Source: Escherichia coli (GTDB lineage Bacteria; Pseudomonadota; Gammaproteobacteria; Enterobacterales; Enterobacteriaceae). From it: 64,000 nucleotides of DNA. Both the position numbers and the translations under genes were made by a program. This document shows positions 6,268-60,492 of this stretch, one piece after another. The stretch lies in NCBI RefSeq assembly GCF_030013205.1, contig NZ_CP122648.1; one strand, written 5' to 3'. Each line of letters starts with the position of its first letter. The first letter of the stretch is position 1. The notes below the pieces were generated by a model that made no database searches, was not told the DNA's origin, and saw nothing but the letters and a program-made list of their open reading frames with translations.

Positions 6268-6359
6268 TTTATTAACGCGATTGTAAAACTGCGGTTTTTA
6301 CTCGTTTACAACGCGTGCGCTGGACATTACCATCCTCCTCTGCGATTTATCATCGCAAT

Positions 6360-6437
6360 CAAACGACTCGGGGTGCCCTTCTGCGTGAAGGCTGAGAAAT
6401 ACCCGTATCACCTGATCTGGATAATGCCAGCGTAGGG
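6360..6437 (+). repeat. Left copy of 78-bp direct repeat: TPP-riboswitch aptamer segment without downstream expression platform (att-like)
   Basis: Identical base-for-base to 15250-15327; sequence diverges immediately on both sides. Confidence 0.85.
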
Positions 6438-6520
6438 GGCCAAAATAGTCTTGAAAATTATGTGGTTGTATCTCTTTTTGACCATAAATCATGCTGTTAA
6501 GGTACAAAAAGGGGTCGTTT

Positions 6521-7828: not shown

Positions 7829-7869
7829 TGTGAGCCTCGTGAGAAAGGGAATAAATAGAGAAAATCAAG

Positions 7870-7897
7870 TTGTTACCTCATTGGCAGGGGATATAAT
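7870..7897 (+). promoter_or_regulatory. Candidate sigma70 promoter for nuclease gene
   Basis: TTGTTA-16 bp-TATAAT, ~30 bp upstream of ATG 7928; followed by near-palindrome TGACCATATTGTCA (possible operator). Confidence 0.45.
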
Positions 7898-7927
7898 GAC
7901 CATATTGTCATCTTGAGGAACAAAAGT

Positions 7928-9499: not shown

Positions 9500-9887
9500 A
9501 ATCACGTTTCACTTTTCGTTGTCATTTGTATCGAACGTTTTTGAGAAAGGGCAGGATTGCGAGCGAGTTACCAGCGTAAACAGATAAATACTGTTTTCGT
9601 AAGCCCACTGTCGCCGCTTTCCGCTCTGCAATTTTTGCTTGTCGGGGGGCTAATTGTGGCTTTGCTTGCCATAACATTAAAAGTCAGTAATATACTGAAA
9701 ATTAATACAATACTTTTCATATATCCCATTGAATATTCAGTTCATTGCCAAATAGCAAGCGGAGCACTCTCTCTTTAACGTTGTAGTAACTTAGTTGAAC
9801 AATTTTATAATATAATTTGTCTAAGTTGGTTGATGTATCAAAGCCTTTTTCTGAAGAATGAATTGGCGTGATTACTCACGCCAGATT

Positions 9888-10235
9888 TTAAATTTCAGAA
9901 CATAGGCTAAGCGTATAGACAGCAGTTTGCCCATCATTGTTAGTCGGTCTCATAACGAAAACAGGCTGACTCCCATTATCAATGTATGTGACTGCAACCC
10001 CTCCATCAGGTGTGGCATACATTTTTGCGATGCTTTTTTGACCTATAAAATCAAGTCTCCAAGTCTTACCACCAAGATGTATTGTCATTTTTTTATCTTG
10101 TATATCAAAAGTTGAATCTACAGAAACTTTCTGACTTCCCGAGTCAATATGACCTTCCTGTATTGCTTTACAGGAAAAGGTTGTGGCGTGGCCCATCACT
10201 GGAATTAACAAAGCGGCAAATACTAGTTTTTTCAT
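9888..10235 (-). CDS. Small secreted/periplasmic hypothetical protein (115 aa)
   Basis: Internal ATG with GGGAG RBS; signal peptide MKKLVFAALLIPVMGHA; no family recognised. Confidence 0.5.
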   Translation of the reverse strand: MKKLVFAALLIPVMGHATTFSCKAIQEGHIDSGSQKVSVDSTFDIQDKKMTIHLGGKTWRLDFIGQKSIAKMYATPDGGVAVTYIDNGSQPVFVMRPTNNDGQTAVYTLSLCSEI

Positions 10236-10345
10236 TTGTCTCCCTTGATGTGTCAAATGGATGGTGATGCTAATAATACATGATTGATTCAAAATGTCAC
10301 GATTAGTGCGTGGTTAATTGGTGCGTCAAATTGCATCTTTGTGCC

Positions 10346-10810
10346 ATGCGAAAGAATCTGAGATACCTTTTTGGACAACGAGTAAAAGAGTTCCGTATAG
10401 CTATTGGCTTAAGCCAAGAGGCCTTTGCAGATCGGTGTGGTTTTGCTCGTAGTTATATGAGTCGAATTGAGCGTGGTTGCTCTAATGCATCTCTTGATGC
10501 AATTGAGGTTCTGGCTGACGCTTTGCGTATTGAGCCTTGGCAGTTACTAGCTTCTGATTCAAGGAAAACTGATGATCAGGAGGTACTTGTTCCTTATGCT
10601 GCAGATGGGTCGTGTTTTCATCCAGGATTGGCAAGTACTCGCGATGGTTCGTTTAGAGTAGGGGAAAAATCAGCCCAGAAACGTTTCAGTTCGTTCAATG
10701 ACGCTCTCGAATACCTTCGTGGAATGGAAACCGCGAAGTGGCGTAGGCCTAATGCTAGTGGTAATTGGGGAATTGTATCTGCGGTTAAATGGGATCGACT
10801 GAATCAATAA
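10346..10810 (+). CDS. XRE-family (Cro/CI-type) HTH transcriptional regulator with uncharacterised C-terminal domain
   Basis: HTH segment LSQEAFADRCGFARSYMSRIERG; start codon uncertain (GTG 10310 or ATG 10346). Confidence 0.55.
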   Translation: MRKNLRYLFGQRVKEFRIAIGLSQEAFADRCGFARSYMSRIERGCSNASLDAIEVLADALRIEPWQLLASDSRKTDDQEVLVPYAADGSCFHPGLASTRDGSFRVGEKSAQKRFSSFNDALEYLRGMETAKWRRPNASGNWGIVSAVKWDRLNQ

Positions 10811-10976
10811 GATATCAGTAATTTTCGGGCCACTCCACAAGGCAATAAGTGGCTTAGTGGTGATTATCGAAGGGGAATACAAGCGAGCACCTAGGCACCA
10901 TTGCAAGAACCGCTCAACGCTGAGATCAGCAAGCCCCGATTTCTGCCGACCGTCCCTGTCAAATATCAAGGAGGCA

Positions 10977-11516
10977 TTACGCCTCCTCTTCTTCCTTCTT
11001 AATTCGCTGTACCGTCGAAGGAGCAACATTAAAGATCTCGGCGGTTTTACGCACTGACACGCCATCAGAAAGGGCTTTCTTTATACCTTCTCGATCCACT
11101 GCCTTACCTTTACCACGCTTTCTAGGATTGACGGCTTGCGCTTCTCGTTTACGTTCTAACATCAGTTCACGTTCACACGTTGCCACTGCCGACAACATAG
11201 TAAGCATCATTTTTCCCATCGCGCTTGTAATGTCTGCAATGATCCCTTCTTTGTGAAAGCGAACAATTACACCACGATTATTAAGTTGTTCCACTAAGGC
11301 AAGAATGTCTAAGGTGTTACGCCCTAAACGATCAAGAGAGTGGACGTGTAAGGTGTCGCCTTCTCTCAGATAGGCTAAACACGCTTGTAAGCCTGGGCGG
11401 TTAGTGTCTTTACCAGACAGCTTATCTTCAAAGACTTTGTCGAGAGTTAGTCCTGCAAGCTGGCGATCAGTATTTTGATCTACAGTGCTCACACGCTTAT
11501 AGCCGATATTGCTCAT
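10977..11516 (-). CDS. Serine recombinase (resolvase/DNA invertase family)
   Basis: N-terminus MSNIGYKRVSTVDQNTDRQ (catalytic Ser motif), C-terminal HTH; ATG 11516 with AAGGGGA RBS. Confidence 0.8.
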   Translation of the reverse strand: MSNIGYKRVSTVDQNTDRQLAGLTLDKVFEDKLSGKDTNRPGLQACLAYLREGDTLHVHSLDRLGRNTLDILALVEQLNNRGVIVRFHKEGIIADITSAMGKMMLTMLSAVATCERELMLERKREAQAVNPRKRGKGKAVDREGIKKALSDGVSVRKTAEIFNVAPSTVQRIKKEEEEA

Positions 11517-11564
11517 AAAATCCCCTTGATGTATCGATTTGGCACCACTCCAATGCAAATGAGT

Positions 11565-11660
11565 GTGTTGTATTCATTTGGTCTGTTTCAAGCCTTATGG
11601 ATACGGAATATTACACGATTTAGCTGTATTCATTTGGTATGCCTAATGGATACGCAGGGG
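11565..11660. promoter_or_regulatory. res-like recombinase binding sites upstream of the serine recombinase gene
   Basis: Two similar subsites TGTATTCATTTGGT…ATGGATACG with internal imperfect dyad symmetry, directly upstream of recombinase start. Confidence 0.4.
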
Positions 11661-11769
11661 GATAGATTAAATGGTGTTCTGTTTATACAGGTTTATTTGT
11701 TAGATCAACAAGTTGGCATTTCTAAACAGATGTTTGAACGTTGCCAAATGCCTTGACAACACAAGAAAA

Positions 11770-12720
11770 TGGCTTGCTATGAACGCATTACACGAAATAA
11801 GGCTATAAAAACAAAATAAATTTTAAAATTTGCACAAAAACGAGAAAACTCGTTCGACAAATAATAGATTGGTTTTTAATCGACAATTTCTGACAATTTC
11901 TGATGGTGCTCTGTAAACCGCATTACACAAGGCTTTGCGAAAGTGATGTAAAAGTGAAGAAAGTTAACATTGCACTTTGAAGCCATTTTTCATTGGATTT
12001 TTTAGTAGGGAATTACACAGGGAATAGAGAGCATTATTCTATGATTTACACAGGGAATATAGGGGATTATGGCACACACATAGAAAGGCATTACACAGAG
12101 TGAGTGCTATGTGATGATTGGTAGTAACGGTAGGTCACTGTGAGCTACCCCCCACAGAATTCTGTTACCCCTATCAAGTCTAACAGGGGTTTATAAAGAA
12201 TAATAAACCGATGATACCCCTATCAATATTGATACCCCTATTAGCTTTGATATGACTACCCCTATCAAAACTGATACCCGATAAGAATAAGTTAATAAGA
12301 ATAATTAAATAATATTCTTTATATCTATATATATGATCTTTTTGCCTTCCGGCGTTAGCTTCACTCTCTGGCAAGCAGCCTTACTCCGCTATCTTTGGGC
12401 TTCGTGGCTGGCCCGTTCCGCTCACACCGAAAGCAAAGCGTTACTCTTCTTCGTGTAACTATCGTTGGCGGTAACGCCACACGAAGAAATACTATTGCGC
12501 TGTGCGCAGTAAGAGTAATCACCTAACCAATCACCTGATTGCTTACGTGTTAACTCTCTCTAACTCTTAATTACCCTCCTACATTTAATAACTCTATTAT
12601 TCTCTGTAGTTGTGTAATTACTCGAAGAGAGAGCGGCTAAAGCTCAATTACACTCTGCTTTCCTCGTGTAATTTCACTAAGCCTCAATACAATTTCACTT
12701 CCTACATTCTGTAGTCGTGT
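11770..12720. repeat. Iteron-like repeat cluster in 1.9 kb ORF-free AT-rich region (putative origin or regulatory hub)
   Basis: Five direct copies of (C)ATTACACAG at ~11777-12100, four copies of TACCCCTATCAA at ~12163-12270, reverse-orientation GTGTAAT copies at ~12451-12715. Confidence 0.5.
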
Positions 12721-13503
12721 AATAGTTTTCGGTGGGGAAAAGCCAGAGGCGACACCGAAAGAAAATTCTGATCTTATTAATCTTATCTATCTTAGTTAAT
12801 CTTCTTACTTACTTTATCTACTTTATTATTAATAATAGCTTTATAAGCTCTCTGTGTAGCTCTCTGACGCAAGAAACAGCATTCAGGAAGGGAATCACCT
12901 TAGAAAAGTGTTCTTTGCGTCATAATGTGTTTTATGAAGGATTCAGAGGTGTTTCATAACACAAGGTATAGAGGATATTTTAGTTAATTAAAAATAAGGG
13001 GGCTAAATGCTTCTCTAACAGCATTAAGCAGGGTAGAGAATGGAAATGCATTGCCTACGTATATATAAACTCACTACAAGGCTTTACAGAGCGTTTTATA
13101 AAGTAACTAATCTAAGAACTCTCTGTTTTATATCTATCATCATCTTTCCATCATCTAACAAATACAAAATAAGCCCCTTAAATAAGCCTCTGGCGAGCTA
13201 AACAGCCATTACATAAGGGAATGTATTTCTTTTATCAAAACTTCGTTAGAACGCGTTTTAGAGCGTTTTATACAATAAGGAAGAATAGGACCGTCCGCAA
13301 GAGCACGAATTGCTAAGAAAGAATGTAAACGCATGAAAAATATCAGATTTTTTATGAAAATATATTGACAAATGTTTCTTTATATGTAATAATAGGTATT
13401 AGAGAGACAGAAAAACATTCTTCTCTAAATAATCAAAATCAATGCACTTTGAAGCCGTCAGGCTTGCAAGGTGTTTTTCTTTTAACTGAATAAGGAGTTT
13501 TTT

Positions 13504-13692
13504 ATGAAATGGTTTACACCGGAACACGTCGTAGAGGCATTTAAAAAAGGTGAGCTAACACGACATCAAGTAGTAATGAATCGTAATATGGCAAGGAGTC
13601 GAGGTTATCCAGAGCGTGAAAAATGTTTCGATGCAGCACTAAAAATTATTGATAAATTAAGAAAAAATGAAAAAGGATCTGAAACAGAGTAA
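13504..13692 (+). CDS. Hypothetical small protein (62 aa)
   Basis: AAGGAG RBS upstream of ATG; no family recognised. Confidence 0.35.
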   Translation: MKWFTPEHVVEAFKKGELTRHQVVMNRNMARSRGYPEREKCFDAALKIIDKLRKNEKGSETE

Positions 13693-13711
13693 AGAAGAGA
13701 AGGAGAAAACT

Positions 13712-13882
13712 ATGAGCGAAACTACAGAAAAGAAAAGACAACCACGCACTTGCTTTCATATTCCTGATGAAGTATTTCAGGTGTTGTTTAAAGAAGCCAG
13801 AAGTAAACGTATCACTGTTACAGATTACATTCTTGATATGTTGAAAAGAGAGGCTGAAACACTCTCAAATAAAAGCAAGTGA
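13712..13882 (+). CDS. Small ribbon-helix-helix (CopG/Arc-like) DNA-binding protein
   Basis: 56 aa; AAGGAGAAAAC RBS; N-terminal RTCFHIPDEVFQVLFKEA…ITVTDYILDML pattern typical of RHH. Confidence 0.45.
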   Translation: MSETTEKKRQPRTCFHIPDEVFQVLFKEARSKRITVTDYILDMLKREAETLSNKSK

Positions 13883-13936
13883 TTTTTATCACCATAGTAG
13901 CGCCGTAGAGCGTGATTACATCAAGGAGCTTTTTTA

Positions 13937-14599
13937 ATGATTAAACATACAAAACCTTTCTTAGGAATAGATTATGACTTACTAGCAATCACTTCCCTAG
14001 TGATTAACGGCAAAACAAAAGAAGTAAAACTACATCATAAGATCATTTATTCTTATTTGTTAAGTTTATCTGGCACATATCAAAAGGTAACACCATCTTT
14101 GAAAGGTATTGGTGAGCGGTTAGGAGTAGGTACAGATCAGACGGTACGCCGTCATATCAAAGATCTTGTTTCTTTTGGATGGTTGAAGATTGAGGAAAGG
14201 GCAGGTAGCACAAATGCTTATATTGTCCTTCCTTATGAACAAGAAGCCCAGACACAACAAGAAGCTACCGTTAAAGCTGTTCAGGAACAGCTTCCCCCTA
14301 CGGAAGATAATAAAGAGTTTTCTTTTGATGTTCTTGATGATTGGGATGCGCCTTTACCTTGGGAAATGGAAGAAACGCCATCTGATGAAAAGGTAGCTAA
14401 TGATAATGAGGAGGATGTGTTAGAGAATTTTGCCTCTCTTATCATCCAGGAGAAACACACAAGAACAGGAGGGGCATCATTTATAGAATTTGCAACATCG
14501 TTAGCCTGTAAGCACAGGATAAAGCTACCAAATGGTATTGAGGCATATTTTGCTAAGAAACATCCCAAAGTATATGAAGACTTTGATATTCCATTTTAA
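13937..14599 (+). CDS. HTH (winged-helix-like) protein with acidic linker; possible iteron-binding replication or regulatory protein
   Basis: 220 aa; AAGGAG RBS; HTH-like segment LKGIGERLGVGTDQTVRRHIKDLVSFGWL; sits beside iteron region. Confidence 0.45.
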   Translation: MIKHTKPFLGIDYDLLAITSLVINGKTKEVKLHHKIIYSYLLSLSGTYQKVTPSLKGIGERLGVGTDQTVRRHIKDLVSFGWLKIEERAGSTNAYIVLPYEQEAQTQQEATVKAVQEQLPPTEDNKEFSFDVLDDWDAPLPWEMEETPSDEKVANDNEEDVLENFASLIIQEKHTRTGGASFIEFATSLACKHRIKLPNGIEAYFAKKHPKVYEDFDIPF

Positions 14600-14794
14600 T
14601 AAGGAGGGTTATGATTCAATATTTAGTAAAAAATAAAGTAGAATTCATCTATTCCACTCTCTAAAAATCTATCTGTGTAATATAAAATGAAAACATTATG
14701 GTATTAGCTATGTATTGGTTATTGTTCTTTCTGGCCTTAGAAACATATGCAAGTAAGTCTGGAAAACGAAAGTAATATATTGATGATTTGTTTG

Positions 14795-15052
14795 TTATAA
14801 CTTCGTGGTGTCAAGTCCAGCAGTTTTGAGTCGCTCGGTAAGATTTCTCATTTTGCTGAACTCTGTACCAAAGCTGGCTTTAAGTCCTACACCTTCGCAA
14901 AACTCTTTTGCCGTGACGTTTTTCAGATGGTCAACATATTTGGTCATCTGGAGGTGCATTTCCATCGTTTGGCTATTTCGTGATGCGCTGCTAATGGCTT
15001 GCTTAATGTTCTCGTAGATCTGGGTTCTGTCATTGTTTATCCCACCTATCAA
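14795..15052 (-). CDS. Hypothetical protein (weak call; no in-frame ATG at ORF start)
   Basis: 85-aa ORF begins at TTG; first in-frame ATG would give 56 aa; no family recognised. Confidence 0.25.
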   Translation of the reverse strand: MIGGINNDRTQIYENIKQAISSASRNSQTMEMHLQMTKYVDHLKNVTAKEFCEGVGLKASFGTEFSKMRNLTERLKTAGLDTTKL

Positions 15053-15249
15053 ATTTAGAAAAATAATATTAATTAGCTAATTAATATAATCAATGGTTTT
15101 CACCATCTGAATGATAGCCGTTAATTGTTTCTTTTTCATTCCTTCTATGGGGTACAAAATGGGGTACACAGAGAAGAAGCAATTAATGGAGGCGAGCTTG
15201 CATCTGCAAGCCACTTCCCCTAAGCTGGCACAAAATATAGAGATTCAAC

Positions 15250-15327
15250 CAAACGACTCGGGGTGCCCTTCTGCGTGAAGGCTGAGAAATACCCGTATCA
15301 CCTGATCTGGATAATGCCAGCGTAGGG
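15250..15327 (+). repeat. Right copy of 78-bp direct repeat (part of intact thiM riboswitch)
   Basis: Identical to 6360-6437. Confidence 0.85.
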
Positions 15328-23169: not shown

Positions 23170-23253
23170 TACGCCTTATACGAACAGCACTACCCCGTAT
23201 GACGGAAAAGGCGTTTACGTCGCATCCGGCATAAAAACACGCGCACTTTGCTA

Positions 23254-25551: not shown

Positions 25552-26004
25552 ATGACTAACCTGTTTGTTCGTAGCGGAATTTCTTTTGTCGATCGTAGCG
25601 AAGTTTTAACCCATATCGGTAATGAGATGCTCGCGAAAGGTGTGGTTCATGATACATGGCCACAGGCATTAATTGCCAGAGAAGCAGAATTCCCTACCGG
25701 GATAATGCTTGAGCAGCACGCCATTGCAATACCGCATTGTGAGGCGATTCATGCTAAGTCGTCAGCCATTTATCTGTTAAGGCCAACAAATAAAGTTCAT
25801 TTTCAGCAAGCGGATGATGATAACGACGTGGCGGTATCGTTGGTTATTGCGTTAATTGTGGAAAATCCGCAGCAGCAATTGAAACTTTTACGCTGTTTAT
25901 TTGGCAAGTTACAACAGCCCGAGATCGTCGAGACACTAATCACTCTTCCTGAAACCCAGTTAAAGGAATACTTCACAAAGTATGTTTTAGATTCAGACGA
26001 ATAA
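25552..26004 (+). CDS. gatA: Galactitol PTS EIIA component
   Basis: 150 aa. Confidence 0.9.
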   Translation: MTNLFVRSGISFVDRSEVLTHIGNEMLAKGVVHDTWPQALIAREAEFPTGIMLEQHAIAIPHCEAIHAKSSAIYLLRPTNKVHFQQADDDNDVAVSLVIALIVENPQQQLKLLRCLFGKLQQPEIVETLITLPETQLKEYFTKYVLDSDE

Positions 26005-26034
26005 ATCCCTCTGTAACAATAAAAAGGACTATTT

Positions 26035-26319
26035 ATGAAACGCAAGATTATTGTCGCTTGCGGAGGCGCGGTTGCGACCTCTACGATGGCGGCGGAAGAA
26101 ATTAAAGAGTTGTGTCAGAGTCATAATATTCCTGTTGAATTAATCCAGTGTCGGGTTAATGAAATAGAAACCTATATGGATGGCGTGCATTTGATATGCA
26201 CCACTGCCAGGGTGGATCGAAGTTTTGGCGATATTCCGTTAGTTCACGGCATGCCTTTTGTTTCTGGTGTCGGTATCGAAGCATTACAAAATAAAATTCT
26301 GACTATCTTACAGGGGTGA
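26035..26319 (+). CDS. gatB: Galactitol PTS EIIB component
   Basis: 94 aa. Confidence 0.9.
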
Positions 26320-26322
26320 CCT

Positions 26323-27336
26323 ATGTTTTCAGAAGTCATGCGTTATATTCTCGACCTCGGCCCTACGGTGATGCTGCCAATTGTCATCATTATTTTTTCT
26401 AAAATATTAGGCATGAAGGCAGGCGATTGCTTTAAAGCGGGTCTGCATATCGGGATTGGCTTTGTTGGCATTGGCCTTGTGATTGGCTTAATGCTGGATT
26501 CCATTGGCCCGGCGGCGAAAGCGATGGCGGAAAATTTCGACCTGAATCTGCATGTGGTCGATGTCGGTTGGCCGGGCTCTTCACCAATGACCTGGGCGTC
26601 GCAAATTGCGCTGGTGGCGATTCCGATTGCGATTCTGGTTAACGTGGCGATGCTACTGACCCGTATGACGCGGGTGGTAAATGTTGATATCTGGAATATC
26701 TGGCATATGACCTTCACCGGCGCATTGCTGCATCTGGCAACCGGTTCATGGATGATAGGGATGGCGGGTGTGGTAATTCACGCGGCGTTTGTTTATAAGC
26801 TCGGCGACTGGTTTGCCCGCGATACCCGAAATTTCTTTGAGCTGGAAGGCATTGCTATTCCGCACGGTACGTCGGCGTATCTGGGGCATACGGCGGTGGT
26901 ATCGGCAAGCCTGATTTTTATCCCGCTCACCATTTTAATTGCTGTTTGTGTGCCGGGTAATCAGGTGCTGCCGTTTGGCGATCTTGCAACTATCGGCTTC
27001 TTTGTGGCGATGGCAGTTGCCGTGCATCGTGGAAATCTGTTCCGCACCTTAATCTCGGGTGTCATCATTATGAGCATCACCCTGTGGATCGCGACGCAAA
27101 CTATTGGTTTGCACACCCAACTGGCGGCTAATGCTGGGGCGTTAAAAGCCGGGGGTATGGTGGCTTCAATGGATCAGGGCGGTTCTCCCATTACCTGGTT
27201 ACTGATTCAGGTTTTCTCCCCGCAAAATATTCCCGGTTTCATTATTATCGGCGCAATTTATCTGACCGGTATTTTCATGACCTGGCGTAGAGCGCGTGGT
27301 TTTATTAAACAAGAGAAAGCCGTTCTCGCAGAATAA
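26323..27336 (+). CDS. gatC: Galactitol PTS EIIC component (appears shortened, 337 aa)
   Basis: Recognised GatC N- and C-terminal sequence, but ~114 aa shorter than the ~451 aa I recall for K-12; junction near …GTSAY|LGHTAVV…. Confidence 0.75.
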   Translation: MFSEVMRYILDLGPTVMLPIVIIIFSKILGMKAGDCFKAGLHIGIGFVGIGLVIGLMLDSIGPAAKAMAENFDLNLHVVDVGWPGSSPMTWASQIALVAIPIAILVNVAMLLTRMTRVVNVDIWNIWHMTFTGALLHLATGSWMIGMAGVVIHAAFVYKLGDWFARDTRNFFELEGIAIPHGTSAYLGHTAVVSASLIFIPLTILIAVCVPGNQVLPFGDLATIGFFVAMAVAVHRGNLFRTLISGVIIMSITLWIATQTIGLHTQLAANAGALKAGGMVASMDQGGSPITWLLIQVFSPQNIPGFIIIGAIYLTGIFMTWRRARGFIKQEKAVLAE

Positions 27337-27383
27337 TTTTTACCTGAGGGGGAGGTAATCCCCCTTAACAATCAGGAGTTTTT

Positions 27384-28424
27384 ATGAAATCAGTGGTGAA
27401 TGATACTGATGGTATCGTGCGCATTGCAGAAAGCGTCATTCCTGAAATTAAACATCAGGATGAGGTACGGGTAAAAATTGCCAGCTCGGGCTTATGTGGT
27501 TCCGATTTACCCAGGATATTTAAAAATGGTGCACATTATTATCCAATAACGTTAGGCCATGAATTTAGCGGCTATATTGATGCGGTGGGATCCGGTGTTG
27601 ATGATTTACACCCTGGCGATGCGGTTGCCTGTGTGCCGTTATTACCCTGTTTTACTTGTCCAGAGTGTTTGAAAGGGTTTTATTCCCAGTGCGCAAAATA
27701 TGATTTTATTGGCTCGCGGCGTGATGGTGGATTTGCTGAATATATTGTCGTTAAGCGAAAAAATGTCTTTGCTCTACCCACGGATATGTCTATTGAGGAT
27801 GGGGCTTTTATTGAGCCGATTACCGTTGGCCTGCATGCTTTTCATTTAGCGCAAGGTTGTGAGAATAAAAACGTTATTATTATTGGTGCCGGAACCATTG
27901 GCCTGCTGGCTATTCAGTGCGCTGTCGCGCTGGGAGCAAAGAGTGTGACGGCTATCGACATTAGCTCAGAAAAACTGGCACTGGCAAAATCTTTCGGTGC
28001 GATGCAAACATTTAACAGCCTTGAAATGAGCGCGCCGCAAATGCAGGGCGTTTTACGCGAGCTGCGCTTTAATCAGCTTATCCTCGAGACGGCTGGCGTC
28101 CCGCAAACCGTCGAACTGGCGGTAGAGATTGCCGGGCCTCATGCCCAGCTGGCGCTGGTGGGCACGTTGCATCAGGATCTGCATTTAACATCGACAACGT
28201 TTGGCAAAATATTACGTAAAGAGCTGACGGTTATCGGCAGCTGGATGAACTACTCCAGCCCTTGGCCGGGGCAGGAGTGGGAAACGGCGAGCCGGTTGCT
28301 GACAGAACGTAAGTTAAGCCTGGAGCCATTAATCGCTCACCGTGGAAGCTTTGAAAGCTTCACCCAGGCGGTGCGTGACATCGCTCGTAATGCTATGCCG
28401 GGCAAAGTGTTGCTCATTCCTTGA
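27384..28424 (+). CDS. gatD: Galactitol-1-phosphate 5-dehydrogenase (zinc-dependent ADH family)
   Basis: 346 aa. Confidence 0.9.
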   Translation: MKSVVNDTDGIVRIAESVIPEIKHQDEVRVKIASSGLCGSDLPRIFKNGAHYYPITLGHEFSGYIDAVGSGVDDLHPGDAVACVPLLPCFTCPECLKGFYSQCAKYDFIGSRRDGGFAEYIVVKRKNVFALPTDMSIEDGAFIEPITVGLHAFHLAQGCENKNVIIIGAGTIGLLAIQCAVALGAKSVTAIDISSEKLALAKSFGAMQTFNSLEMSAPQMQGVLRELRFNQLILETAGVPQTVELAVEIAGPHAQLALVGTLHQDLHLTSTTFGKILRKELTVIGSWMNYSSPWPGQEWETASRLLTERKLSLEPLIAHRGSFESFTQAVRDIARNAMPGKVLLIP

Positions 28425-28429
28425 AACCG

Positions 28430-28460
28430 CGGGCCAGCGTGATGCTGGCCCGGTATTGTG
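28430..28460 (+). terminator. Candidate terminator after gatD
   Basis: Hairpin CGGGCCAGC-GTGAT-GCTGGCCCG followed by weakly T-rich tract. Confidence 0.45.
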
Positions 28461-28523
28461 CAAAACAGATCATTCACCAATGGTCCCCCTTCGTTTACAC
28501 TAACCACAATTGAATATGGGTAA

Positions 28524-29303
28524 ATGACGATGAATTCATTCGAGCGAAGGAATAAGATCATCCAATTAGTGAATGAACAGGGAACCGTGCTTGTTCAGGA
28601 TCTGGCGGGAGTATTTGCTGCATCGGAAGCGACAATCCGTGCCGATTTGCGCTTTCTCGAACAAAAAGGCGTGGTTACGCGCTTTCATGGCGGTGCGGCG
28701 AAAATAATGTCCGGTAATAGTGAAACCGAGACCCAGGAAGTCGGGTTTAAAGCGCGATTTCAGCTCGCCAGCGCGCCAAAAAACAGAATAGCGCAGGCGG
28801 CAGTCAAAATGATCCACGAAGGGATGACCGTTATTCTCGACAGCGGAAGTACGACAATGCTTATCGCCGAAGGATTAATGACCGCCAAAAATATCACGGT
28901 GATTACCAACAGTCTCCCGGCAGCGTTTGCCCTTTCCGAAAATAAAGACATTACTCTGGTTGTCTGTGGTGGCACGGTCCGCCATAAAACGCGCTCGATG
29001 CATGGTTCCATTGCCGAGCGTTCATTACAGGATATTAATGCCGATTTAATGTTTGTCGGTGCTGATGGTATTGATGCGGTTAATGGTATTACGACCTTTA
29101 ATGAAGGTTATTCGATTAGCGGGGCGATGGTCACAGCCGCAAATAAAGTGATTGCCGTTCTCGATTCATCGAAATTTAATCGTCGCGGTTTTAATCAGGT
29201 ACTGCCAATCGAAAAAATTGACATTATTATTACCGACGATGCCGTGTCAGAGGTGGATAAACTGGCATTGCAGAAGACACGGGTAAAATTAATTACGGTG
29301 TAG
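28524..29303 (+). CDS. gatR: DeoR-family repressor of the gat operon (uninterrupted)
   Basis: 259 aa continuous ORF with N-terminal DeoR-type HTH and sugar-binding C-domain. Confidence 0.85.
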   Translation: MTMNSFERRNKIIQLVNEQGTVLVQDLAGVFAASEATIRADLRFLEQKGVVTRFHGGAAKIMSGNSETETQEVGFKARFQLASAPKNRIAQAAVKMIHEGMTVILDSGSTTMLIAEGLMTAKNITVITNSLPAAFALSENKDITLVVCGGTVRHKTRSMHGSIAERSLQDINADLMFVGADGIDAVNGITTFNEGYSISGAMVTAANKVIAVLDSSKFNRRGFNQVLPIEKIDIIITDDAVSEVDKLALQKTRVKLITV

Positions 29304-29312
29304 TATTGTTCT

Positions 29313-29352
29313 GTATGCCGGATAAGGTGTTTACACCGCATCCGGCATTACG
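29313..29352. repeat. REP (repetitive extragenic palindromic) element
   Basis: GCCGGATAAGG…GCATCCGGCA palindromic unit typical of E. coli REP. Confidence 0.55.
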
Positions 29353-29384
29353 GATTCTCCCTGGTTCAAGAGAGAATAGTTTGA

Positions 29385-30284
29385 TTAACGCAATAATGGA
29401 CAATCTGGTGGTAATCGACAACGTAACGCCGCCGGAAGTATTTCAATATGGAAGTTTTGCCCACTCAACGGTTCGCCATCAAGATTAAAAGTGATTTCGT
29501 GTGGGGCTTGTATATCAAACCACGACGAAGCGCCTTCGATAATATTCGGGTTATCTTCGTCAGATTTTAAGGTTGATACGAGAGCTGGAAGAATTTCATC
29601 GCCGGTAAAAATGCGCAGTTGCAGCAGGCCATCGTTAATTAACGCGTTCGGGCACAATTGCTGACCGCCACCGGCCTGACGCCCGTTACCAATACCAATG
29701 ACCAGGGCGTCACCTTGCCAGTGAAAGTTTTCACCGCGGATCTCACAACGGTCCGGTTGCAGAGTATCCATGCGCATTAAGCCATGAATGATGTAAGAGA
29801 CGCCACCCAGCGCGGCTTTTAATTTTTCCGGCGTTTCTGTGGTAATACGCGTCCCAAACCCGCCTGTCGCCATATTAATAAAACAGGTTTGTTTGTTGAC
29901 CTGCGCCATATCTATCGCAATGGCGTTACCGGCAATTGCCAGTTTCAGCGCCTTATCCAGAGCCTCAGGAATCCCTACACTAGTGGCAAAATCATTGGCG
30001 GTTCCTAATGGTAAAATTCCCAGCGCGGGTATGTCATCCCCCTCACACTGAATCAACGCCGTAGAAACTTCATTAATGGTGCCATCGCCACCACCGGCAA
30101 TCACCGTTGCGACGCCCAACTTCCGTGCCTCCTCTACATATCGTGCGGCATCGCCTTTCTCCCAGGTGACCCGCACATGGATCGTCATTCCTTCCTCACG
30201 CAACAGCATAATTGCTTCGCGCAAGGGTAGATTGTCAGTACTTTTGCCATTAAGAATCAGTAAGCTGGCGGGAAATTCTGCCAT
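29385..30284 (-). CDS. yegS: Lipid kinase (DAGK-catalytic-domain family)
   Basis: 299 aa with GGDGT motif. Confidence 0.85.
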
Positions 30285-30698
30285 GATCGTATGTGCCTTT
30301 ATGATTGGTCTGTAGATAGTGTAGAGCAGAAAAGAAAAGGTGGAGTCAGAACAGGATGAAAGTCTGAGGATAAAAAGTCAGTTCAAGTATGGAGGATTCA
30401 GTGGTTACCACCAGGAGCTTGCAATGGGGACAGTGAATGTTAACGGTAGCCATAGGTAAATTTCAAAAAAGAGCATATACCTAATATTCAACTAAACAGT
30501 GGCATCTTCAATATACTATTCAAAATATATTTAAGCCACCCATAGGGTTACCCGGAAGGGCCTCCGTGTCTGTAATTCCTACTTATGTAGGAAATGTTGT
30601 ACAAAACATTTATTATAATCCTATTCAAATATAATAATCAGCCATTATTATATTTGAACACTAGAGAGTGTCGTTGGTATTTAATGGGGGAAGGTGAG

Positions 30699-31016
30699 AT
30701 GAAAAAGATAGCTGCTATATCATTAATTAGTATTTTTCTTATGTCTGGGTGTGCTGTGCATAATGATGAGACAAGTATCGGTAAATTTGGCCTTGCATAT
30801 AAAAGTAATATTCAGCGTAAACTCGATAACCAATACTACACCGAAGCCGAAGCTTCTTTAGCCAGGGGCAGAATTTCTGGTGCAGAAAATATAGTAAAAA
30901 ATGATGCAGCTCATTTCTGTGTTACTCAGGGCAAAAAAATGCAGATAGTTGACCTGAAGACAGAAGGTGCAGGATTACATGGCGTCGCTCGTCTGACATT
31001 CAAATGTGGAGAGTGA
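30699..31016 (+). CDS. yegR: Small lipoprotein
   Basis: 105 aa from ATG 30699 (MKKIAAISLISIFLMSGC, lipobox) with GGGGAAGG RBS; ORF-track start is an upstream extension. Confidence 0.7.
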   Translation: MKKIAAISLISIFLMSGCAVHNDETSIGKFGLAYKSNIQRKLDNQYYTEAEASLARGRISGAENIVKNDAAHFCVTQGKKMQIVDLKTEGAGLHGVARLTFKCGE

Positions 31017-31174
31017 GAATATTTTTTGGTAAGCGTCAAACATGCGCGTTCTGGTTGTGCGTAGCCGGAACCTGTGCGAGCACGATGCCGTTACGTGAAA
31101 GGCATCGTGCTATGAAGGGGGATTCTATCGATTTGGTCAATGGAAGACGGGGACCAGGGATAGGGCTTATGCAT

Positions 31175-31261
31175 AAAAAATAAGCCCGTGTAAGGGAGAT
31201 TACACAGGCTAAGGAGGTGGTTCCTGGTACAGCTAGCATTTTATGGGTTATGTTTTTCAGC
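31175..31261 (-). ncRNA. cyaR: CyaR (RyeE) Hfq-dependent sRNA
   Basis: Minus-strand sequence GCUGAAAAACAUAACCCAUAAAAUGCUAGCUGUACCAGGAACCACCUCCUUAGCCUGUGUAAUCUCCCUUACACGGGCUUAUUUUUU matches CyaR including terminator hairpin. Confidence 0.85.
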
Positions 31262-31345
31262 GAAACGGATGATAACCTTAATAAATGCAGCTGTATGTGA
31301 TCGGTTTCTAAGAATTTTCCATCCGGGAAAAATAATCGAAATTAA

Positions 31346-32707
31346 TCACTTACCGTGGGGGTTACGCGTGGTTTCCCCGGAGAAATTACGCATCAGCAGC
31401 GCGTAATTTAGCTCAAGATCCTGCGGGACCGGGATCCACACAGTATAACCATCGCCCGGTGCGACCGGCATTGCTTCGCCTTTGGCGTTTTCCATATGCT
31501 CAAGGGTAAAGTTAATGTTCCCTTGCGGCGTCATCAGCTCAAGGCTGTCGCCAACGGAGAATTTATTTTTCACCGCTACCGCCGCGAGGTCGCCCTTGCG
31601 CTCACCGGTAAACTCACCAACAAACTGCTGGCGGTCAGAAACTGAATAACCGTATTCGTAGTTCTGATAATCGTCGTGAGTATGACGACGCAGGAAACCT
31701 TCGGTATAGCCACGATGCGCCAGACCTTCCAGAGTTTCCAGCAGGCTGGTATCGAACGGTTTGCCCGCAGCGGCGTCATCGATAGCTTTACGATAAACCT
31801 GTGCGGTGCGTGCGCAATAGTAGAAAGATTTGGTACGGCCTTCGATTTTCAGCGAATGCACGCCCATTTTGGTCAGGCGTTCTACATGGGCGATGGCGCG
31901 CAGATCTTTCGAGTTCATGATGTAAGTGCCGTGCTCATCTTCAAACGCGGTCATATACTCGCCCGGACGCTGGGCTTCTTCGATCATAAACACTTTGTCA
32001 GTTGGTGCGCCGATACCCAGCGTCGGCTCAACATTTTGCACCGGAATCGGCTCGTACTTGTGTACGATGTTGCCAACGTCATCTTCTTTCCCTTCCTGGA
32101 CGTTGTACTCCCAGCGGCAGGCGTTGGTGCAGGTGCCCTGGTTCGGGTCGCGCTTGTTGATATAGCCAGAGAGCAGGCAGCGACCGGAGTAGGCCATGCA
32201 CAGCGCGCCGTGAACGAAGATCTCGATCTCCATATCCGGCACCTGATTACGGATCTCTTCAATCTCTTCCAGCGACAGCTCGCGAGAGAGGATCACGCGG
32301 GTCAGTCCCATTTGCTGCCAGAATTTCACCGTCGCCCAGTTCACGGCGTTAGCCTGCACCGAGAGGTGGATCGGCATTTCAGGGAAGTGCTCGCGCACCA
32401 GCATAATCAGCCCTGGATCGGACATAATCAGCGCATCCGGCCCCATTTCCACCAGCGGTTTCAGGTCACGGATAAAGGTTTTCAGCTTGGCGTTGTGCGG
32501 TGCAATGTTGACCACGACATAAAACTTTTTCCCCAGCGCATGGGCTTCATTAATGCCGAGCTGAAGATTTTCGTGGTTGAATTCGTTGTTGCGCACACGC
32601 AGGGAGTAACGTGGCTGGCCCGCATAAACAGCATCTGCGCCATAAGCGAAAGCGTAACGCATATTTTTCAGCGTTCCCGCCGGGGAAAGGAGTTCCGGTT
32701 TAAACAT
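31346..32707 (-). CDS. yegQ: Peptidase U32-family protein
   Basis: 453 aa. Confidence 0.9.
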   Translation of the reverse strand: MFKPELLSPAGTLKNMRYAFAYGADAVYAGQPRYSLRVRNNEFNHENLQLGINEAHALGKKFYVVVNIAPHNAKLKTFIRDLKPLVEMGPDALIMSDPGLIMLVREHFPEMPIHLSVQANAVNWATVKFWQQMGLTRVILSRELSLEEIEEIRNQVPDMEIEIFVHGALCMAYSGRCLLSGYINKRDPNQGTCTNACRWEYNVQEGKEDDVGNIVHKYEPIPVQNVEPTLGIGAPTDKVFMIEEAQRPGEYMTAFEDEHGTYIMNSKDLRAIAHVERLTKMGVHSLKIEGRTKSFYYCARTAQVYRKAIDDAAAGKPFDTSLLETLEGLAHRGYTEGFLRRHTHDDYQNYEYGYSVSDRQQFVGEFTGERKGDLAAVAVKNKFSVGDSLELMTPQGNINFTLEHMENAKGEAMPVAPGDGYTVWIPVPQDLELNYALLMRNFSGETTRNPHGK

Positions 32708-32853
32708 AATTCTCTCGTTCTGATGACAGGTCAGATCCGCTTCACCTGATGAAGCGGCCAGGGGAGTGCCCCCACTTTAAGGGCGGGCATTGTAGCGCTG
32801 TAGGGGGGGCTGGTAAAGCGCCAGACGCCAACAACACGCGCCCGGCATCGTAA

Positions 32854-33186
32854 TTACGTATTGTCTTTCACCGTCTGGCTTGTGCCATTGGCTTTAACGG
32901 AGGCAATTCCGGTTTCACGAGATTGCGCGGTGGCGTACATCTGGCTGGAGCCGATAATTTGATGATTGGCGGCTTTCAGATTGAAATAGAATTTGCCGTT
33001 GCTTGCCGTTTTTTTCTCATAGCGTTCTTCTTGCGGGCTGTTGCTACGCACCGACGCGATACCCTTTTCCGCAGAGGCTTTTGAGGTATATAGCTCGCTG
33101 GTGAGGATAGTCTCACCATTGCCCGCTTTTAGCACAAACCGGAACTGATTATCACTGCTCTTACTGAGTTCAAACCAACCAGCCAT
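32854..33186 (-). CDS. yegP: UPF0339-family protein with two tandem repeats
   Basis: 110 aa from ATG 33186 (AAGGAG RBS); internal duplicated motif. Confidence 0.8.
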   Translation of the reverse strand: MAGWFELSKSSDNQFRFVLKAGNGETILTSELYTSKASAEKGIASVRSNSPQEERYEKKTASNGKFYFNLKAANHQIIGSSQMYATAQSRETGIASVKANGTSQTVKDNT

Positions 33187-33365
33187 AATGACTCCTTGAT
33201 TGAAATTGCGTATCGAAAACAGCATCTAAAAGGACTGTTTACCGATTAAAGTATGAGCGATTTTCAGGCGGTTGCCAGGGCGAAGAGATAATGTCAGATA
33301 GCCGACAATGCATGGGATAATGTTGCCGGATGCGGCGTGAATGCCTTCTCCGGCAGGTAAAAATG

Positions 33366-34088
33366 TTAAACGATGCGGCAGGCGTCGGCTTCCCAGCGGT
33401 AACCGACGCCGTAAACGGCACGGATAAAGGACTGTTCGGCGTCGAGAGATTCCAGCTTGCGGCGCAGGTTTTTAATGTGGCTATCGATGGTGCGGTCGGT
33501 TACTACGCGGTAGTCGTCATAAAGATGATTGAGCAATTGCTCGCGGGAGAACACTTTTCCTGGTTCATGAGAGAGCGTTTTCAGCAGACGAAATTCCGCA
33601 GGCGTCAGGTCAAGCATTTTTCCGCGCCATGAAGCCTGAAAACGACCTTCGTCGATAATCAACGGGCTTTCAGCATCCTGTTGCTGCAACTCACGCTGCG
33701 GTTTGCAACGGCGCAAAATGGTTTTGACGCGCGCTACCACTTCCCGTGGGCTGTACGGCTTGCAGATATAATCATCTGCGCCAATTTCCAGCCCCAGCAG
33801 GCGGTCGATCTCTTCGATTTTTGCTGTCACCATCACGATCGGAATGTCAGAAAAACGACGAATTTCCCGACACAGCGTCAGGCCATCGGTGCCAGGGAGC
33901 ATCAGATCCAGCAGGATCAGATCCGGTGGTGTCTGGCGCACATACGGCAGTACCTGATCGCCGTGGCTAATCAACGTTGGCGCATAGCTCGCAGCACGCA
34001 GATAATCAATGAGTAACTGCCCCAGCTTCGGTTCATCTTCCACGATCAAAATACGCGGTGTGTTTTCGTCGATTGGTAACTCGGTCAT
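33366..34088 (-). CDS. baeR: Envelope-stress response regulator (OmpR family)
   Basis: 240 aa; receiver plus winged-helix domains. Confidence 0.95.
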
Positions 34089-44577: not shown

Positions 44578-44717
44578 AAACGGGAAAGCCCCTCCCGAGG
44601 AAGGGGCCATAAATAAGGAAAGGGTCATGATGAAGCTACTCATCATCGTGGTGCTCTTAGTCATTAGCTGGCCAGCTTACTAAGACTACCAGGGCGGGGG
44701 AAACCCCGCTCTACCCT
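44578..44717 (-). ncRNA. sibB: Sib antisense sRNA (antitoxin) over ibs unit 1; boundaries approximate
   Basis: Minus-strand TTGACA-17-TACTTT promoter downstream of ibs stop; hairpin plus U-rich tract upstream of ibs start. Confidence 0.5.
44627..44683 (+). CDS. ibsB: Type I toxin Ibs (18 aa, MMKLLIIVVLLVISWPAY)
   Basis: Exact small hydrophobic ORF with tandem ATG. Confidence 0.8.
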   Translation: MMKLLIIVVLLVISWPAY

Positions 44718-44905
44718 CACTCCTGAAAGTATGCCTTCACGATAAGATTGTCAATCTGCAGGCTTTGCAGTCTGCGATCCTGCCAGCAAATATTCTTTGC
44801 GAGACGTTACGCAATAATCACACTGGAAACTATTTTATCCGCAAGTCAGCGATAGACTGCATTCAGGGCGAAAGGAGGTAAGCCGACGATTTCAGCGGGA
44901 CGCTG

Positions 44906-45045
44906 AAACGGGAAAGCCCCTCCCGAGGAAGGGGCCTTAAATAAGGAAAGGGTCATGATGAAGATACTCATCATCGTGGTGCTCTTAGTGATTAGCTACC
45001 CAGCATACTAAGACTACCAGGGCGGGGGAAACCCCGCTCTACCCT
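44906..45045 (-). ncRNA. Sib antisense sRNA over ibs unit 2; boundaries approximate
   Basis: Minus-strand TTGACA-17-TAATTT promoter; same architecture as unit 1. Confidence 0.5.
44955..45011 (+). CDS. Type I toxin Ibs variant (18 aa, MMKILIIVVLLVISYPAY)
   Basis: Middle repeat unit; differs from flanking Ibs peptides at L4I and W15Y. Confidence 0.75.
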   Translation: MMKILIIVVLLVISYPAY

Positions 45046-45234
45046 CACTCCTGAAATTATGCCTTCACGATAAGATTGTCAATCTGCAGGCTTTGCAGTC
45101 TGCGATCCCGCCAGCAAATATTCTTTGCGAGTCGTTACGCAATAATCACAGAGGAAACTATTTTGTTCACGCGTTAGCGATAGACTGCATTCAGGGCGAA
45201 AGGAGGTAAGCCGACGATTTCAGCGGGACGCTGA

Positions 45235-45374
45235 AACGGGAAACCCTCTCCCGGAGAAGAGGGCTTTTAATAAGGAAAGGGTTATGATGAAGCACGTCAT
45301 CATACTGGTGATACTCTTAGTGATTAGCTTCCAGGCTTACTAAGAACACCAGGGGGAGGGGGAAACCTCTCCCT
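45235..45374 (-). ncRNA. sibA: Sib antisense sRNA over ibs unit 3; boundaries approximate
   Basis: Minus-strand TTGACA-17-TAATTT promoter downstream of ibs stop. Confidence 0.5.
45284..45343 (+). CDS. ibsA: Type I toxin Ibs (19 aa, MMKHVIILVILLVISFQAY)
   Basis: Exact small hydrophobic ORF. Confidence 0.8.
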   Translation: MMKHVIILVILLVISFQAY

Positions 45375-45563
45375 AACCCTCACTCCTGAAATTATGTCAC
45401 TCCGCCCTTAGTGTCAATCGACGGCTCTTCGTTCTTGCGAGGCGAATAGCAAAATTTTCTGCGCCGCCGGGCCTAATTCTGAAAGTTTCTTCGTTTGCTC
45501 TTATTTCATTATTGCAATCGGTATGATACCGGACCTCAATAATTCTCTAAGAAAGGATTTCTT

Positions 45564-46223: not shown

Positions 46224-46981
46224 GCTGGCGTCTGGTCTATGCATCAACCGTTGGAACGTCGCACATCAGCGCGGACTTGCCTTGCCAGGATGCCTGCCAG
46301 ATGCAGGTTGCCTGGTTAAATGACCAGCAGCCATTATTGTCGGTATTTGTCGCTGATGGCGCAGGCAGTGTCTCGCAGGGTGGCGAAGGCGCGATGCTCG
46401 CCGTCAATGAAGCGATGGCTTATATGTCGCAAAAAGTGCAGGGCGGGGAATTGGGGCTTAATGATGTCCTCGCCACGGATATTGTGCTGACCATTCGTCA
46501 GCGACTTTTTGCCGAGGCGGAAGCCAAAGAATTAGCGGTTCGCGATTTTGCCTGCACATTTCTGGGACTGATTTCATCGCCTGACGGCACCTTGATTATG
46601 CAGATTGGCGATGGCGGCGTGGTGGTAGATTTGGGGCACGGTCTGCAACTGCCGCTCACGCCGATGGTGGGTGAATATGCCAATATGACGCATTTCATTA
46701 GCGATAAAGATGCTGTTTCCAGACTGGAAACTTTCACCAGCACTGAGCGTGCGCATAAAGTTGCAGCATTTACGGATGGTATTCAGCGACTGGCGTTAAA
46801 TATGCTGGATAATTCTCCGCATGTGCCTTTCTTTACCCCGTTTTTCAATGGACTGGCGGCAGCAACGCAGGAACAACTCGATTTATTACCTGAATTGTTA
46901 AAGCAGTTTTTGTCCAGCCCGGCGGTAAACGAGCGTACCGATGATGATAAAACGTTGGCACTGGCGCTGTGGTTACCATGA
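46220..46981 (+). CDS. yegK: PP2C-family Ser/Thr protein phosphatase
   Basis: 253 aa; overlaps yegL stop and yegI start. Confidence 0.85.
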
Positions 46982-48918
46982 AACCCACTTTATATACTGC
47001 TACTGGTGAGTGCGTTACGCCAGGCCGTGAACTGGGCAAAGGTGGCGAAGGCGCGGTTTATGATATCGAGGAGTTTGCCGATAGCGTCGCCAAGATTTAT
47101 CACACGCCGCCACCCGCCTTAAAACAGGACAAACTTGCCTTTATGGCTGCGACAGCTGACGCACAGTTGCTGAATTATGTCGCCTGGCCGCAGGCAACGC
47201 TTCACGGTGGACGAGGCGGAAAAGTTATTGGTTTTATGATGCCAAAAGTTTCTGGTAAAGAACCGATTCATATGATCTATAGCCCGGCACATCGTCGTCA
47301 ACGTTACCCTCATTGTGCGTGGGATTTTCTACTCTATGTTGCGCGCAATATTGCTTCATCTTTTGCTACGGTTCACGAGCACGGGCATGTCGTGGGTGAC
47401 GTAAACCAGAACAGCTTTATGGTAGGCCGTGACAGCAAAGTGGTGTTGATTGATAGCGACTCCTTTCAGATTAACGCCAATGGCACGCTGCATTTATGCG
47501 AAGTCGGCGTGTCGCATTTTACGCCGCCAGAGCTGCAAACATTGCCATCATTTGTCGGTTTTGAACGTACCGCGAATCACGATAATTTTGGCCTTGCGTT
47601 GCTGATTTTTCACGTCTTGTTTGGTGGGCGGCATCCTTATTCCGGTGTACCGCTTATCTCTGATGCGGGTAATGCGCTGGAGACGGATATTGCCCATTTC
47701 CGTTATGCCTACGCGTCAGATAATCAGCGACGTGGTTTAAAACCGCCGCCACGATCGATTCCGCTGTCGATGTTACCGGGCGATGTTGAAGCCATGTTTC
47801 AGCAGGCATTCACGGAAAGTGGCGTGGCAACCGGGCGTCCGACGGCAAAAGCGTGGGTAGCGGCACTTGATTTACTACGCCAACAGTTAAAGAAATGTAC
47901 CGTTTCGGCAATGCATGTTTACCCCGCTCATTTGACTGACTGCCCGTGGTGTGCGCTGGATAATCAAGGCGTTATCTATTTTATTGATCTCGGCGAAGAG
48001 GTCATTACCACCGGCGGGAATTTTGTGCTGGCGAAAGTCTGGGCGATGGTGATGGCGTCAGTAGCACCGCCAGCATTGCAATTGCCATTACCCGATCATT
48101 TCCAGGCTGCTGGCAGGCCGCTTCCTTTAGGCCTGTTACGGCGCGAATACATCATTCTGATTGAGATCGCACTGTCAGCGTTATCGCTGTTGCTTTGCGG
48201 CCTTCAGGCAGAACCGCGTTATATCATTTTGGTTCCCATGCTGGCGGCTATCTGGATTATTGGCAGCCTGACAAGCAAAGCGTACAAAGCAGAAATCCAG
48301 CAACGCCGTGAGGCATTTAATCGCGCGAAAATGGACTATGACCATTTAGTCAGCCAGATCCAACAGTTGGGCGGGCTGGAAGGTTTTATCGCCAAACGGA
48401 CGATGCTCGAAAAAATGAAGGACGAAATTCTTGGGTTACCGGAAGAAGAAAAACGTGCTCTGGCAGCACTTCAGGACACCGCAAGGGAACGGCAGAAGCA
48501 GAAGTTTCTGGAGGGATTTTTTATTGATGTTGCCTCTATTCCCGGCGTTGGCCCTGCGCGTAAAGCTGCGTTACGGTCCTTTGGTATTGAAACGGCGGCA
48601 GACGTTACCCGACGGAGCGTTAAGCAAGTGAAAGGTTTTGGTGATCATCTGACCCAGGCGGTTATCGACTGGAAAGCGAGTTGCGAACGCCGTTTTGTTT
48701 TCAGGCCGAACGAAGCGGTAACGCCTGCAGACAGACAAGCGGTAATGGCAAAAATGGCCGCCAAACGACATCGGCTGGAATCGGCGCTGACTGTCGGTGC
48801 GACAGAGTTGCAGCGATTCCGCCTTCATGCTCCAGCACGGACCATGCCGTTGATGGAACCGTTACGTCAGGCGGCAGAAAAACTGGCTCAGGCGCAGGCT
48901 GATTTAAGCCGCTGCTGA
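46969..48918 (+). CDS. yegI: Ser/Thr protein kinase-like protein with C-terminal membrane/helical region
   Basis: 649 aa; kinase-like N-domain, hydrophobic segment, C-terminal helix-hairpin-helix-like region. Confidence 0.85.
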   Translation: MVTMKPTLYTATGECVTPGRELGKGGEGAVYDIEEFADSVAKIYHTPPPALKQDKLAFMAATADAQLLNYVAWPQATLHGGRGGKVIGFMMPKVSGKEPIHMIYSPAHRRQRYPHCAWDFLLYVARNIASSFATVHEHGHVVGDVNQNSFMVGRDSKVVLIDSDSFQINANGTLHLCEVGVSHFTPPELQTLPSFVGFERTANHDNFGLALLIFHVLFGGRHPYSGVPLISDAGNALETDIAHFRYAYASDNQRRGLKPPPRSIPLSMLPGDVEAMFQQAFTESGVATGRPTAKAWVAALDLLRQQLKKCTVSAMHVYPAHLTDCPWCALDNQGVIYFIDLGEEVITTGGNFVLAKVWAMVMASVAPPALQLPLPDHFQAAGRPLPLGLLRREYIILIEIALSALSLLLCGLQAEPRYIILVPMLAAIWIIGSLTSKAYKAEIQQRREAFNRAKMDYDHLVSQIQQLGGLEGFIAKRTMLEKMKDEILGLPEEEKRALAALQDTARERQKQKFLEGFFIDVASIPGVGPARKAALRSFGIETAADVTRRSVKQVKGFGDHLTQAVIDWKASCERRFVFRPNEAVTPADRQAVMAKMAAKRHRLESALTVGATELQRFRLHAPARTMPLMEPLRQAAEKLAQAQADLSRC

Positions 48919-60012: not shown

Positions 60013-60480
60013 AGTAAGTACAAAACCTATTCGTTGTATGACAAATGTCACAATTCGATCATGGATAAATCGGGGCAAAAATGCAATGTTGCAGCACTAT
60101 TTATCTCATATTATTTGAGGTTTATAACCTCACATTATCCCTTAATTAAAAGTGGTAATAATAAAACATTATTTAAGAAATATCGCATGTGGAGACACTA
60201 TATTAAATATTGTCAATCTAAAGAAACTCCTAAAAACCATATTGAATGACACTTAATATAATTCTTAAAAATAGCCAATTGCCGAATTGTTACCTTGCCT
60301 GCTATTCCGTTAGCTGTAACACTTCCTCCTGCATTATTGGAGAGCCAATATTCAATTACCATAATGTCACCTTATATTCGGAAGTTAATTTTCGCAATAA
60401 CCCTTTCTCATCAACGACTGTATGTTGAGAGGGTTTTAAAAATTAAGCTAAATCAGTGTATTGGTAGCTAAAAAGCCAGG

Positions 60481-60492
60481 GGCGGTAGCGTG
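60481..60492 (+). promoter_or_regulatory. ops element (RfaH recruitment site, JUMPstart) in colanic-acid operon leader
   Basis: Exact GGCGGTAGCGTG ~180 bp upstream of wza. Confidence 0.7.

Follow-up and report, generated by a model that had tools for sequence, protein, structure and literature searches.

An uninterrupted gatR gene and an empty P2 attachment site beside cyaR in a porcine clone of Escherichia coli

The interval from gatR to cyaR raises the question of which arrangement of these genes is the original one in Escherichia coli, that of the K-12 reference strain MG1655 or the one found here in a 64,000-nucleotide stretch of contig NZ_CP122648.1 (the whole of which is referred to as the window). 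A preliminary description of positions 28524–31345 had proposed that the window departs from K-12 at two points, one within gatR and the other beside cyaR, and had suggested alignment to MG1655 and other references as a check, which for a claim on structure is the appropriate test, in place of a calculation of chance. The alignment revealed a different organization at both points; thus, identical organization is excluded. Exactly two breaks occur inside the interval, one at the insertion element IS3E and the other at the cryptic prophage PR-X, and the remaining differences consist of 78 SNPs together with two indels in the spacer between yegS and yegR, an insertion of 10 bp and a deletion of 1 bp. 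With a probability of roughly 0.97, a porcine, non-K-12 clone of the ETEC/O139:H1 type keeps the ancestral gatD-gatR-yegS-yegR-cyaR-yegQ order, and both of the K-12 features are derived and private to the K-12 laboratory lineage.

The gene order was taken from the list of open reading frames for positions 26000–34000 and from the annotation of the public genome that matched best. Both sources place gatD at 27384–28424 on the plus strand and, at the other end, the flanking core gene yegQ (trhP; tRNA U34 hydroxylation) at 31346–32707 on the minus strand. Between gatR and cyaR are found yegS (29385–30284, minus strand) and yegR (30699–31016, plus strand, from the public annotation). The YegS lipid kinase is 299 aa in length and is composed of a diacylglycerol-kinase catalytic domain and a YegS_C domain, while a Pfam search of the 105-aa YegR protein identified no domain. 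The 10-bp insertion in the spacer that separates these two genes has the sequence TCAAAATATA and is located at approximately position 30520.

The gatR gene encodes the DeoR-family repressor of the galactitol (gat) operon. As had been described, it is a continuous open reading frame of 259 aa in the window, running without interruption from 28524 to 29303 on the plus strand. This length is counted from the first ATG; the NCBI PGAP annotation of the swine strain K_EC180 begins two codons later (28530) and yields a protein of 257 aa. The DeoR-type HTH (PF08220 HTH_DeoR, residues 8–60, 1.3e-16) and the DeoRC sensor domain (PF00455, residues 85–238, 2.6e-51) are both present in one unbroken polypeptide. 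Orthology with K-12 gatR is evident from the position directly downstream of gatD and from the near-identity of the proteins. When the two MG1655 fragments are joined to give a protein of 257 aa, 256 of the 257 positions are identical to GatR from the window, and the sole difference from the rebuilt K-12 protein is A versus E in the segment FKARF/FKERF.

The statement that the K-12 gene is split by an insertion element agrees with the annotation of MG1655, where gatR is a two-piece pseudogene divided by IS3E (insE5/insF5, 1,258 bp). This break in MG1655 has been described previously (bioRxiv 10.64898/2026.01.05.697630). The first of the two alignment breaks falls at window positions 28826–28828, where the blocks overlap by 3 bp (GAC). 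In MG1655, one junction consists of GGGATGAC followed by IS3E and the other of IS3E followed by GACCGTTATT, compared to an uninterrupted GGGATGACCGTTATT in the window. From the block overlap and the junction sequences, GAC can be identified as the IS3 target-site duplication, and positions 28826–28828 represent the K-12 insertion point in an unoccupied state. The event on the K-12 lineage would have been a transposition of IS3E into gatR approximately 100 codons into the gene, with duplication of GAC.

The higher expression of the gat operon in MG1655 has been attributed to the disruption of gatR (PMC3045373). With a complete GatR, the gatYZABCD genes of the window would be repressed until galactitol is present, as opposed to the elevated expression of the operon in MG1655. 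From the protein family and the literature, we infer that the GatR protein of the window is active and that its gat operon is inducible and not constitutive.

The gatC gene of the same operon is shortened. It extends from 26323 to 27336 and encodes 337 aa versus 451 aa. An in-frame deletion of 342 bp between 7-bp direct repeats (CTGGGGC, junction at 26881–26887) takes out residues 189–302, or 114 codons, of the galactitol EIIC domain. When a 60-bp query was used with E <= 1e-14, this junction was identified in 7 of 5,426 complete E. coli genomes, all of which belong to the porcine clone; sister isolates possess the full-length gene. A longer query of 201 bp across the deletion was dropped, as it joined pieces that lie 342 bp apart and did not separate the deleted alleles from the full ones. 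The shortened transporter is probably inactive and the operon under GatR control is probably non-functional for uptake. With the deletion, galactitol uptake was probably lost recently, while the adjacent repressor gene remained intact. That this recent loss was selected by the host, in a natural strain with an intact repressor, is a tentative suggestion and rather unlikely. If it were true, there would be a parallel to the gat-negative sweeps that are seen when gatR-defective K-12 colonizes the mouse gut, where gat loss is an adaptive route (PMC3945185). A further observation near the operon concerns the fbaB-gatY spacer (approximately 23213–23231), where a segment of approximately 78 bp, bounded by a 19-bp repeat, is present only in K-12.

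The second point of difference is found between yegR and yegQ. The cyaR gene (ryeE) encodes a CRP-activated, Hfq-dependent small RNA and is located at 31178–31263 on the minus strand, where it scores 100.7 bits against the Rfam model RF00112 (gathering score 47) and covers model positions 1–85 of 85. Together with the spacer to the yegQ stop codon (31178–31345), it is identical to MG1655 at 168 of 168 positions. The preliminary description had placed yegR directly next to cyaR and yegQ, and this is the case: 161 bp separate yegR from cyaR, with no prophage genes between them. It had also stated that a P2-like remnant (ogrK/yegZ) separates yegR from cyaR in K-12 but not in the window, and both parts are correct. 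The remnant is annotated in MG1655 as 'cryptic prophage PR-X' (2167183–2167811; 629 bp with ogrK and the pseudogene yegZ) and has no counterpart in the window. Searches of the full 64 kb identified no similarity to OgrK or YegZ (tblastn), to IS3E or PR-X (blastn), or to gpD.

The second alignment break is located at window positions 31167–31192, with a 26-bp overlap between the blocks. At 31175–31201 lies the 27-nt attachment core, AAAAAATAAGCCCGTGTAAGGGAGATT, which was found by a regular-expression search to have one copy in the 64-kb window and is unoccupied. This core is the cyaR terminator hairpin and U-tract read on the opposite strand. Positions 31174–31201 match the annotated attP of phage P2 (AF063097/NC_001895, 24355–24382) at 28 of 28 nucleotides. 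Around PR-X in MG1655, a full copy of the core is present beside cyaR, and a truncated copy (…AATAAGCCCGTGTA) is present beside yegR, fused to a gpD fragment.

The preferred attachment site of phage P2 in E. coli C is named locI. A P2-like remnant at the K-12 equivalent of the preferred P2 site was reportedly described by Barreiro and Haggard-Ljungquist in J Bacteriol in 1992. Occupation of the site by P2-like elements can also be seen in Z1002 and O157:H7 F7386, where a complete P2-like late-gene set (tape measure, tail protein, D, ogr) abuts cyaR and yegQ. In an earlier comparison (PMC3032704, Table 2), 'cyaR RNA' is listed as an insertion site for mobile elements; the occupant is 'ogr-D'' in K-12, P2*B in strain B, and a P2 prophage in E. 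coli W, and the Crooks strain has none. The ryeE gene (= cyaR) of E. coli was also already known as a phage target (PMC3603311).

With respect to the K-12 lineage, it is proposed that a P2-like phage integrated at the 27-nt core of the cyaR terminator by tyrosine-integrase recombination, and that its prophage was later deleted down to the 629-bp ogr-D' stub that constitutes PR-X. In the window strain, positions 31175–31201 are predicted to be usable as attB by a P2-type integrase. A phage of this type could lysogenize there, with its own identical core regenerating the 3' end of cyaR.

The background of the window is shown independently of these differences at gatR and cyaR. Across collinear blocks, the identity to MG1655 is 95.8–98.1%, which is sufficient by itself to assign a non-K-12 background. 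A 5-kb query (27500–32500) matched 13 complete pig-associated E. coli genomes at 100.0% identity and full coverage, a set that includes K_EC180, a series of ETEC strains, and the O139:H1 strains P15-25 and W13-16. A fourteenth genome, CFSAN018748, followed at 99.9%; the next-best genome was at 98.6% and most others were at 95–99%. Over approximately 52 kb, the window and K_EC180 are 99.98–99.99% identical and differ by a few SNPs and indels. Neither of the markers of the K-12 lineage, namely the IS3E::gatR junction and the PR-X ogr-D' deletion junction, is present in the window. The suggestion of a non-K-12 background is thereby upheld by a nucleotide divergence of 2–4% from MG1655 and by near-identity to the porcine clone. 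The two additional signs that had been put forward in its favor, an island and an ibs expansion, are both present as an 8.8-kb rcnR/thiM island and as three Sib/Ibs modules compared to two in K-12.

These and other features of the window may be described in their own right. The 8.8-kb island (6438–15245) lies between rcnR and thiM and is bordered by an 82-bp direct repeat (6356–6437 and 15246–15327) whose sequence is the 5' portion of the TPP riboswitch of thiM. Both copies were recognized by Rfam as TPP aptamers, at 61.9 and 71.2 bits. On the left, the repeat has kept its native rcnR-side upstream sequence, and a tyrosine integrase gene (6521–7828) is found 66 nt further on. The cargo includes a GmrSD-type nuclease (GmrSD_N+HNH), HTH proteins, and a serine resolvase. 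The riboswitch may possibly serve as an attachment site, and the integrase may be placed behind a TPP aptamer. This junction between riboswitch and integrase was identified in 181 of the 5,426 genomes, and a literature search on a TPP-riboswitch integration site returned nothing relevant. The three Sib antitoxin RNA / Ibs toxin modules are arranged in tandem between mdtA and yegL (44612–45417) and score 140–150 bits each with Rfam SIB_RNA; the two modules of MG1655 are sibA/ibsA and sibB/ibsB. The yegJ gene is missing between pphC and yegI, such that MG1655 positions 2150935–2151719 correspond to approximately 50 bp in the window (46973–47022). At 60454–60492 on the plus strand, Rfam RF01707 identifies a JUMPstart element with 57.3 bits, which would presumably act as the leader for a cluster of polysaccharide (colanic acid) genes.

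To decide which state is derived, the 5,426 complete E. coli genomes were searched by megablast. The gatR gene is contiguous in 4,756 of them and without any match in 317, and yegR and cyaR are contiguous, with an empty site, in 4,149; these counts, like those of the junctions below, are approximate, as they rest on megablast coverage thresholds and as laboratory K-12 is over-represented in the collection. The cyaR site is interrupted in some other manner in about 900 further genomes, and the two that were inspected, Z1002 and O157:H7 F7386, contain P2-like prophage genes. With 60-bp queries, 341 genomes were found to carry the exact IS3E::gatR junction, and 356 to carry the deletion junction of PR-X in its exact form. 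Among the examples listed, the carriers of the K-12 junctions were all K-12 laboratory strains or derivatives (MG1655, W3110, DH5alpha, BW25113, and similar). The whole PR-X sequence had matched 1,982 genomes; this figure was rejected as a count of the remnant since P2-like prophages retain ogr and D wherever they are integrated, and the junction-specific query was used instead. With a majority of genomes intact and empty, and with junctions that are specific to K-12 among the sampled carriers, the window represents the ancestral state and the K-12 insertions are derived and private to that lineage.

The reverse polarity would require that a K-12-like ancestor of the window strain carried both the IS3 element and the P2 remnant and later lost each of them precisely. 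Precise excision of insertion sequences and integrase-mediated excision of prophages do occur in principle, and an empty site is indistinguishable by sequence from one that has been cleanly excised. However, PR-X is without int and cox and its left core is truncated; as a result, its site-specific excision is impossible. Secondary loss is also at odds with the distribution of the K-12 junctions, which are limited to those 341 and 356 genomes with sampled carriers that are all laboratory derivatives, with the intact and empty state being that of the species majority, and with the 2–4% divergence of the window from K-12. Such a history is considered highly improbable.

It is scarcely credible that the insertion sequence and the remnant are missing because repeats were collapsed during assembly. 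While IS elements are a classic source of assembly collapse, the same 5 kb was recovered at 100.0% identity from 13 independent complete genomes originating from several countries, and at 99.9% from the fourteenth, and thousands of further complete genomes are contiguous at the gatR and cyaR points. Furthermore, the reading frame of gatR is seamless, and a collapse of repeats would not remove the unique sequence of PR-X. The retention of the ancestral gene order by the porcine clone, accompanied by two changes in the K-12 laboratory lineage, is therefore the preferred reading.

In terms of meaning, both observations are ordinary and already documented, and there is nothing novel inside 28524–31345. 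It is K-12 that is atypical at gatR and cyaR, with the window carrying the majority state. Thus, annotation derived from MG1655 of a gatR pseudogene, ogrK, and yegZ is not to be expected in natural isolates. The gat operon of such isolates is probably under repressor control and not at the elevated level of MG1655, as is already known. Strains like that of the window would offer a free P2 attachment site within the cyaR terminator, which is also known.

Compared to the MG1655 locus, gatR::IS3E-yegS-yegR-yegZ/ogrK (PR-X)-cyaR-trhP (NC_000913.3, 2167029–2171833), the window has the shared genes arranged and oriented identically. The encoded proteins differ by one residue in GatR, four in YegS, and four in YegR, and the nucleotide divergence across the block is approximately 3.6%. 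The porcine clone (K_EC180 / ETEC / O139:H1; e.g., NZ_CP062203.1, NZ_CP122719.1, and NZ_CP080233.1) matches the window in gene content and annotation and differs in that only seven of its members have the gatC deletion of the window. With respect to the P2 attachment site, the core in the window matches attP and is unoccupied, whereas in other E. coli it has been taken by P2-like prophages.
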